Origin: Escherichia coli
GTDB lineage: Bacteria; Pseudomonadota; Gammaproteobacteria; Enterobacterales; Enterobacteriaceae
NCBI RefSeq assembly: GCF_003334255.1
Contig: NZ_QOWU01000004.1
Strand: one strand, 5' to 3'
DNA: 64,000 bases
Position 1 is the stretch's first letter. Each line of letters starts with the position of its first letter. A program made the position numbers and the translations under genes. Shown in pieces: positions 9,370 through 9,516 of this stretch. Under the pieces are notes generated by a model. That model was not told the DNA's origin. It did no database searches and was given only the letters and a program-made list of their open reading frames with translations.

Positions 9370-9394
9370 CAGAGTGATGATAAAAGCAAAATTG

Positions 9395-9484
9395 CCTGAT
9401 GCGCTACGCTTATCAGGCCTACATTTCCTTGCAATATGTGCATTACTTTGTAGGCCGGATAAGGCGTTCACGCCGCATCCGGCA
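9395..9484. repeat. BIME (two REP elements in inverted orientation)
   Basis: gcctgatgcgctacgcttatcaggcctac ... gtaggccggataaggcgttcacgccgcatccggc. Confidence 0.7.
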
Positions 9485-9516
9485 TGAACAAAGCGCAATT
9501 TGCCAGCAATAGTGAA

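Follow-up and report, generated by a model that had tools for sequence, protein, structure and literature searches.

Two copies of a palindromic repeat lie in the same orientation in a 64,000-nucleotide stretch of the Escherichia coli chromosome (hereafter the window), one downstream of trpS and the other downstream of glpD. The question that this arrangement raises is whether the two copies, here called site A and site B, form a special pair, more closely related to each other than to other repeats and able to delete or duplicate the DNA between them, or whether they are ordinary members of a repeat family. A first-pass annotation, made from the sequence alone, had described them as near-identical BIME copies with similar flanks that could recombine with each other and bind IHF and gyrase.

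Genomic setting of the two sites

The window is a piece of a K-12-type E. coli chromosome and aligns end to end with positions 3503118-3567117 of NC_000913.3, from which it differs by 16 substitutions and one extra base, none of them within site A or site B. The extra base is a G at 57339 in glpR, a gene annotated as a pseudogene in MG1655. Site A lies between yhfZ and trpS, both of which are on the - strand, so that in the order of the trpS transcript the stop codon (9517-9519) is followed by the repeat (9514 down to 9371) and then by an intrinsic terminator, consisting of a hairpin (9349-9370) and a U-run (9342-9348) and flush with the left end of the repeat. Site B lies 3′ of the glpD stop codon (60400-60402) and of a small hairpin, and stops about 13 nt before the convergent gene yzgL, which may be a remnant. 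Site A lies in the 3′ UTR of trpS and site B in that of glpD; both are extragenic and at the 3′ ends of transcription units, the location that is typical of the BIME-1 family discussed below. The features of the window are collected in Table 1.

Site B borders on variable DNA to its right. Three other Escherichia lineages cease to align with the window at position 60680, Escherichia whittamii has about 2.7 kb of additional DNA to the right of the site B position, and the stretch 60000-61000 of the window is covered to 80% in only 1,256 of 5,426 genomes.

Table 1. Repeat elements and adjoining hairpins in the window (position 1 is its first nucleotide)
Feature	Position	Strand	Basis
Single REP	1669-1705		pattern scans
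Intrinsic terminator of the dam-rpe-gph-trpS transcript	9342-9370	-	terminator scan; RNA fold; present in the empty ATCC 25922 allele
Site A, left outer motif AGAGTGATGATAAAAGCAAAAT, the 'A'-type flank of the family (consensus AGACTGATGACAAACGCAAAAT)	9371-9392	+	family alignment
Site A, Y-type palindromic unit, inverted (iREP), ending in CTAC; equals the shared 30-mer	9393-9422	+	
Site A, L linker of 27 nt, short of 7-8 nt (TTGAAT.) with the IHF-like core	9423-9449	+	
Site A, Z1-type palindromic unit (REP), beginning with GTAG; identical to the family consensus	9450-9484	+	
Site A, right outer motif TGAACAAAGCGCAATTTGCCAGCAATAGTG, the 'B'-type flank of the family; abuts the trpS stop codon	9485-9514	+	
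Degenerate REP-like pair between mrcA and nudE	22361-22466		no intact GTAG/CTAC; 5 mismatches to the REP consensus
Truncated BIME-1 downstream of yhgF: remnant of the Y tail, right half of L, Z1 unit	36600-36662	+	
BIME made of two REPs and a 16-nt linker, in the gap between gntT and malQ (convergent)	44769-44857		
Hairpin 15 nt past the glpD stop codon, flush with the left end of the site B element	60418-60443	+	RNA fold; annotation
Site B, left outer motif AGACTGATGACAAACACAAAAC (22 nt)	60443-60464	+	
Site B, Y-type palindromic unit (iREP); equals the exact 30-mer	60465-60494	+	
Site B, L linker, canonical 35 nt, containing an IHF-like core	60495-60529	+	
Site B, Z1-type palindromic unit (REP), with 3 substitutions against site A and against the consensus	60530-60564	+	
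Site B, right outer motif TGAACAAAGCGCACTTTGTCAAAAATCTAA	60565-60594	+	

Anatomy of the elements

The shared 30-nt stretch in the same orientation, noted in the first-pass annotation, is exact: the 30-mer TGCCTGATGCGCTACGCTTATCAGGCCTAC is found on the + strand at both sites and nowhere else in the 64-kb window, and it starts at 9393 and 60465 rather than at 9395 and 60466. The second arm, GTAGGCC.GATAAG.CGTTCACG.CGCATCCGGCATGAACAAAGCGCA, is as real as had been claimed; its copies begin at 9450 and 60530, and over its 48 nt A and B differ by 3 mismatches instead of about four. The linkers between the two arms are unequal (27 nt in A vs 35 nt in B). The two elements lie 51,072 bp apart from start to start, and their similarity falls into two blocks, 9371-9422 against 60443-60494 (90%) and 9436-9510 against 60516-60590 (84%), with a further 24-nt exact run in common, and ends at the element boundaries. 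Each site holds a single unit and no tandem array. The termini of the BIME-1 element are imperfect inverted repeats, AGACTGATGACAAA and AGATTGCTGACAAA, which match at 12 of 14 positions. A scan of the whole window against Rfam at the gathering threshold gave no family match. The hairpin to the left of site B contains the motif CAATCTG and is possibly the remnant of another BIME-1 end.

Membership of the BIME-1 family

BIME-1 elements have been known since the early 1990s, and every E. coli genome contains dozens of copies. They also go by the names of RIP ('repetitive IHF-binding palindromic element') and RIB ('reiterative ihf BIME'). The family is defined by a y and a z1 REP separated by a long conserved linker, L, that often holds an IHF site, and by its occurrence in single copy (PMC3333891, PMC1187871). 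Judged by their sequence, sites A and B are BIME-1 elements. Both consist of a Y and a Z1 unit in opposite orientation with the CTAC and GTAG tags at the foot, and it is this Y-L-Z1 architecture, together with the outer motifs of the family, that bears out their first description as BIME copies. The second unit is named Z1 following the definition in PMC3333891, and it accompanies L at more than 100 loci.

The extent of the family was estimated by searching a single genome of each species for copies of the 30-mer with GTAGGCC 15-45 nt beyond them. This yielded at least 120 loci. Escherichia and Pseudocitrobacter supplied most of these, and Citrobacter and some others contributed a few. Among the matches listed, 82 of 134 elements have the 35-nt linker and the common outer motifs, and the consensus element reads AGACTGATGACAAACGCAAAAT, Y, AAGGTTTCTGCAATATATTGAATTTGCACGATTTT, Z1, TGAACAAAGCGCACTTTGTCAGCAATCTGA. 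Finding the 30-mer twice in 64 kb is far beyond chance and points to a repeat family as its cause. The flanks of A and B are indeed alike, as had been remarked, and the likeness is not specific to the pair: the same outer motifs recur in over a hundred Escherichia and Pseudocitrobacter copies, so what the two sites share here are the outer motifs of BIME-1. E. coli-type BIME-1 sequences were also seen on very short contigs labelled Bacteroidales, Collinsella, Alkalicoccobacillus and Methylobacterium, and enterobacterial contamination of these assemblies is the most likely explanation.

The other REP/BIME sites that the first-pass annotation had listed in the window are all real by fuzzy pattern scans (Table 1). 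The two-REP element between gntT and malQ is the window's sole candidate of the general BIME-2 kind. A terminator-like hairpin (about 36684-36716) comes after the truncated BIME-1. The longest direct repeats of the window are of another nature: positions 47275-49179 and 61336-63258, about 14.06 kb apart and 73-88% identical, lie within malP and glgP, which are paralogous glucan phosphorylase genes.

Origin of the likeness and potential for recombination

Whole-element identity between A and B is 78.6%, a value that does not sustain the term near-identical. By identity to A, B ranks 55th of 112 copies, and by identity to B, A ranks 68th of 112, the ranks being taken among the listed copies of a subset of the family chosen on the exact Y 30-mer. 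About half of the unrelated listed copies are closer to A or to B than A and B are to each other. Both sites are nearer to the family consensus (82.9% for A, 90.8% for B) than to one another, and they share a non-consensus state at 2 of 152 columns, both poorly conserved. When the K-12-type copies at A, B, aspC-gloC and uvrB-yvcK are compared, A-B is the lowest of the six pairs (78.6% vs 82-85%). Orthologs of A and of B are present in E. whittamii on one contig, in the same orientation and about 54.8 kb apart, and each of them carries locus-specific features. The middling ranks, the proximity to the consensus, the K-12 pairs and the E. whittamii orthologs together indicate that the insertions at A and B are old and independent. 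The two elements have coexisted without a fixed rearrangement.

A specific relationship between the two sites, brought about by recent duplicative copying or gene conversion, would account for the exact 30-mer, the 24-nt exact run and the similar flanks, but the same 30-mer occurs in a BIME-1 context at more than 120 loci, itself a lower bound, and the unequal linkers, the better matches among unrelated copies, the two poorly conserved shared columns and the separate orthologs in E. whittamii all argue against such a kinship, which we consider extremely improbable; gene conversion between A and B was considered and rejected on the identity ranks, the derived columns and the comparison of K-12 pairs. 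At the opposite extreme, the match could be ascribed to chance or to the generic REP consensus, an explanation that has in its favour only that REPs are common. A 30-mer match is expected about 1e-9 times by chance in 64 kb, and the pairwise alignment of the two intervals, a check that had been proposed with the first-pass annotation, shows similarity through the linker and both outer motifs, beyond the generic REP consensus. This extent identifies a complete BIME-1 unit rather than a lone REP, and we give neither chance nor the generic consensus any credence.

The first-pass proposal that these direct repeats could mediate deletion or duplication holds for REPs at large, which are documented hot-spots for the junctions of duplications and amplifications (22 of 90 junctions; PMC3161906), and since such junctions are known and REPs number in the hundreds, the idea is reasonable in kind but generic. 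The A-B pair offers direct orientation and 30 nt of perfect identity, its longest such run, and a repeat-mediated deletion appears to have taken place beside site A, though via a different repeat. A length of about 30 nt is, however, near the minimum for RecA-dependent exchange. Rearrangement junctions were sought in 5,426 complete E. coli genomes with two 800-nt chimeras, one joining the left flank of A to the right flank of B (deletion) and one joining the left flank of B to the right flank of A (duplication), a hit being at least 80% of the query at one place. Either junction was found in 0 of the 5,426 genomes, the fair denominator being smaller because at most about 1,740 of them carry both A and B, and the best places covered 60-62% of the query, as expected from one flank plus the repeat. 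The interval between the sites begins with trpS, the only tryptophanyl-tRNA synthetase gene and an essential one, so a deletion between A and B would leave no viable product, and the arrangement has been stable since before the split of E. coli and E. whittamii. That the pair generates a 51-kb tandem duplication or deletion in natural populations is in our view very unlikely; rare, transient duplications between A and B may occur in cultures.

We are thus highly confident that A and B are independent, long-resident BIME-1 copies whose likeness comes from the family consensus, and that they are neither a special pair nor a special recombination substrate. The two loci behave as typical family members and their pairing is ordinary; no special repeat pair encloses the 51-kb interval, and the finding in its original form matters little.

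Polymorphism of the two sites among isolates

BIME-1 elements are present in some isolates and absent from others, at strain-specific loops (PMC1187871). The same presence and absence are found at both sites, A and B being missing together in ATCC 25922. The K-12 allele of site A occurs at 99% identity or more in 1,740 of 5,426 genomes (32%), and in the remaining genomes the best match to the A element is a paralogous copy elsewhere, with 80-90% identity. Site B was detected at 90% identity or more in about 2,172 of the 5,426 (~40%).

The 3′ intergenic region of trpS exists in at least four alleles in E. coli. The locus is empty in ATCC 25922, where TTGGCATTAATGTTAA stands between the terminator hairpin and the trpS stop codon. 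MBT-5 retains 11 nt from the start of the BIME-1; next to them comes an unrelated palindromic repeat, which we take to be a boxC repeat. O157:H7 lacks the yhfS-yhfZ cluster of about 7.7 kb (window ~1818-9227), so that trpS stands directly next to frlR, and the junction between the two genes holds the palindromic repeat of MBT-5 in a single copy (CCCCTCACCCTAACCCTCTCCCCAAAGGGGCGAGGGGACCGT, about 43 nt). This repeat is found in the window at 1737-1782, 3′ of frlR, and in MBT-5 next to trpS; the single copy in O157:H7 would fit a deletion between two direct repeats, provided that the ancestor had both. At the other site, glpD and glgP are separated in ATCC 25922 by a block of about 10 kb that holds fimbrial and hypothetical genes; it has no BIME, and just 53 nt lie between glpD and the next gene. 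The present/absent polymorphism of A and B at the edges of variable regions fits the view that BIMEs are markers, and perhaps drivers, of small-scale genome variability and that they fine-tune the behaviour of 3′ UTRs between strains.

Copies of IS1 were seen within 1 kb of each site, each in a single strain, the one near site B in NZ_OY754443.1. The copy near site A, in EM18-18-42, was considered as a BIME-targeted insertion and rejected: it falls within the 5′ end of yhfZ, some 170 nt away from A and outside the BIME, at the window equivalent of 9191-9199, and has the normal 9-bp duplication (GACGACGCC).

Hairpins flanking BIME-1 copies

The DNA just outside the outer motifs of BIME-1 is very often a locus-specific, GC-rich hairpin of the terminator type. 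A hairpin flush with at least one end of the element was found at 39 of 53 non-redundant loci (on both sides at 13, on the left only at 15 and on the right only at 11), and at 20 of the 53 loci a direct repeat that scores at least 12 is common to the two flanks, compared with 0.5% of mismatched locus pairs. These direct repeats are 12-37 nt long. In typical flanks, an A-run stands upstream of the left hairpin copy and a T-run downstream of the right one. Filled and empty alleles agree with this at two loci. At aspC-gloC, O157 is empty and has a single hairpin, and there are two in the filled K-12-type allele; at uvrB-yvcK, there is one hairpin in the empty allele of EBJ003, two in the filled allele of E69 and the right one only in the filled allele of K-12. 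Site A has its flush hairpin (9349-9370) on one side only.

A tentative explanation, which we put forward as possible and more doubtful than probable, is that BIME-1 is mobile and inserts at the hairpins of intrinsic terminators, copying the entire hairpin and so leaving a structure-defined target duplication of 12-37 nt; A and B would then be decayed examples. After such an insertion, the left hairpin copy would keep the A-run and the right copy the T-run, and the element would end up inside the 3′ UTR. Enzymes of the IS200/IS605 type make no target duplications, so the duplicated hairpins that flank many BIME-1 copies are unlike what the chemistry of this type (RAYT) predicts. The mechanism of REP/BIME insertion was still called unknown in a 2026 preprint. 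We found no description of hairpin duplication at BIME-1 in the papers examined, and older work (Bachellier et al. 1994, 1997, 1999) may report it; if the duplication is confirmed and new, it would supply a concrete target-site rule for BIME-1 insertion.

Transcript structure, IHF and gyrase

Because A and B stand just past the stop codons of trpS and glpD, they are expected to be transcribed as part of the 3′ UTR. Folding predictions put the RNAs of the two elements at -70 and -72 kcal/mol (z-scores -6.2 and -6.8 relative to shuffled sequences). In the model, the Y and Z1 units would pair in the RNA to form one long hairpin, with L as its loop. By analogy with other elements, such a structure could protect the upstream mRNA from 3′ exonucleases and attenuate read-through; both are ordinary REP/BIME roles and likely ones for A and B. 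The effects of REPs on protection from 3′ decay and on read-through are reported to depend on context (bioRxiv 10.64898/2026.03.23.713779). An earlier list of candidate attenuators includes the BIME upstream of yhfZ (PMC2965389).

A further role, as an IHF site on the DNA, may exist at site B only. An IHF site in the L linker is a hallmark of BIME-1 (PMC3333891), and both linkers were scanned for the IHF consensus WATCAANNNNTTR with at most one mismatch. The linker of B, which is 35 nt long and near the consensus, contains an IHF-like core, ATTCAATATATTG, on the - strand at 60505-60517, with 12 of 13 positions matching; the linker of A (9423-9449) has no match to the consensus with up to one mismatch and resembles a canonical L only in part. 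In E. whittamii the linker of the A ortholog is 34 nt long and contains TTGAATG, and this comparison suggests that the K-12-type allele of A has lost 7-8 nt of the linker together with the IHF-like core, the absence of which sets A apart from a canonical family member. Site B thus probably offers an IHF site on the DNA, as its predicted core suggests, and site A probably does not. The IHF ChIP paper PMC3333857 does not mention REP elements.

Cleavage by gyrase in vivo has been documented for BIME-2, which combines Y and Z2 units (PMC6379681, PMC3333891), and in this literature on BIME gyrase sites we found no report of gyrase cleavage at BIME-1. The first-pass statement that the elements bind IHF and gyrase is therefore only partly right: it may hold for IHF, and at B alone, where an IHF-like core is present.

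Comparison with known systems

BIME-2 elements consist of alternating Y and Z2 units joined by short S linkers and repeated in tandem (PMC3333891, PMC1187871). A and B have in common with them the Y palindromic unit and the general design of the REP hairpin, and differ from them in being single Y-L-Z1 units that lack Z2 and the short S linker and are not repeated in tandem.

The REPINs of Pseudomonas show the same plan of two inverted REPs and a spacer that form one long hairpin, and they too are non-autonomous and occur in many copies near a consensus. They belong to another sequence family and are mobilised by RAYT / TnpA-REP; we know of no demonstration that TnpA-REP mobilises BIME-1 of E. 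coli in vivo. With bacterial MITEs, BIME-1 shares a length of about 150 bp, a long hairpin, imperfect terminal inverted repeats and the direct repeats that flank many copies. The flanking repeats of BIME-1 have no fixed short length, in contrast, and their 12-37 nt track the size of the local hairpin; to our knowledge there is no cognate DDE transposase for BIME-1.

With BIME-1 itself, A and B share the inverted Y and Z1 units, the GTAG/CTAC tags, the outer motifs, the single copy, the extragenic location and the present/absent polymorphism. Site B adds to these the canonical 35-nt linker with an IHF-like core, whereas site A, with its 27-nt linker and no such core, is a decayed member of the family.
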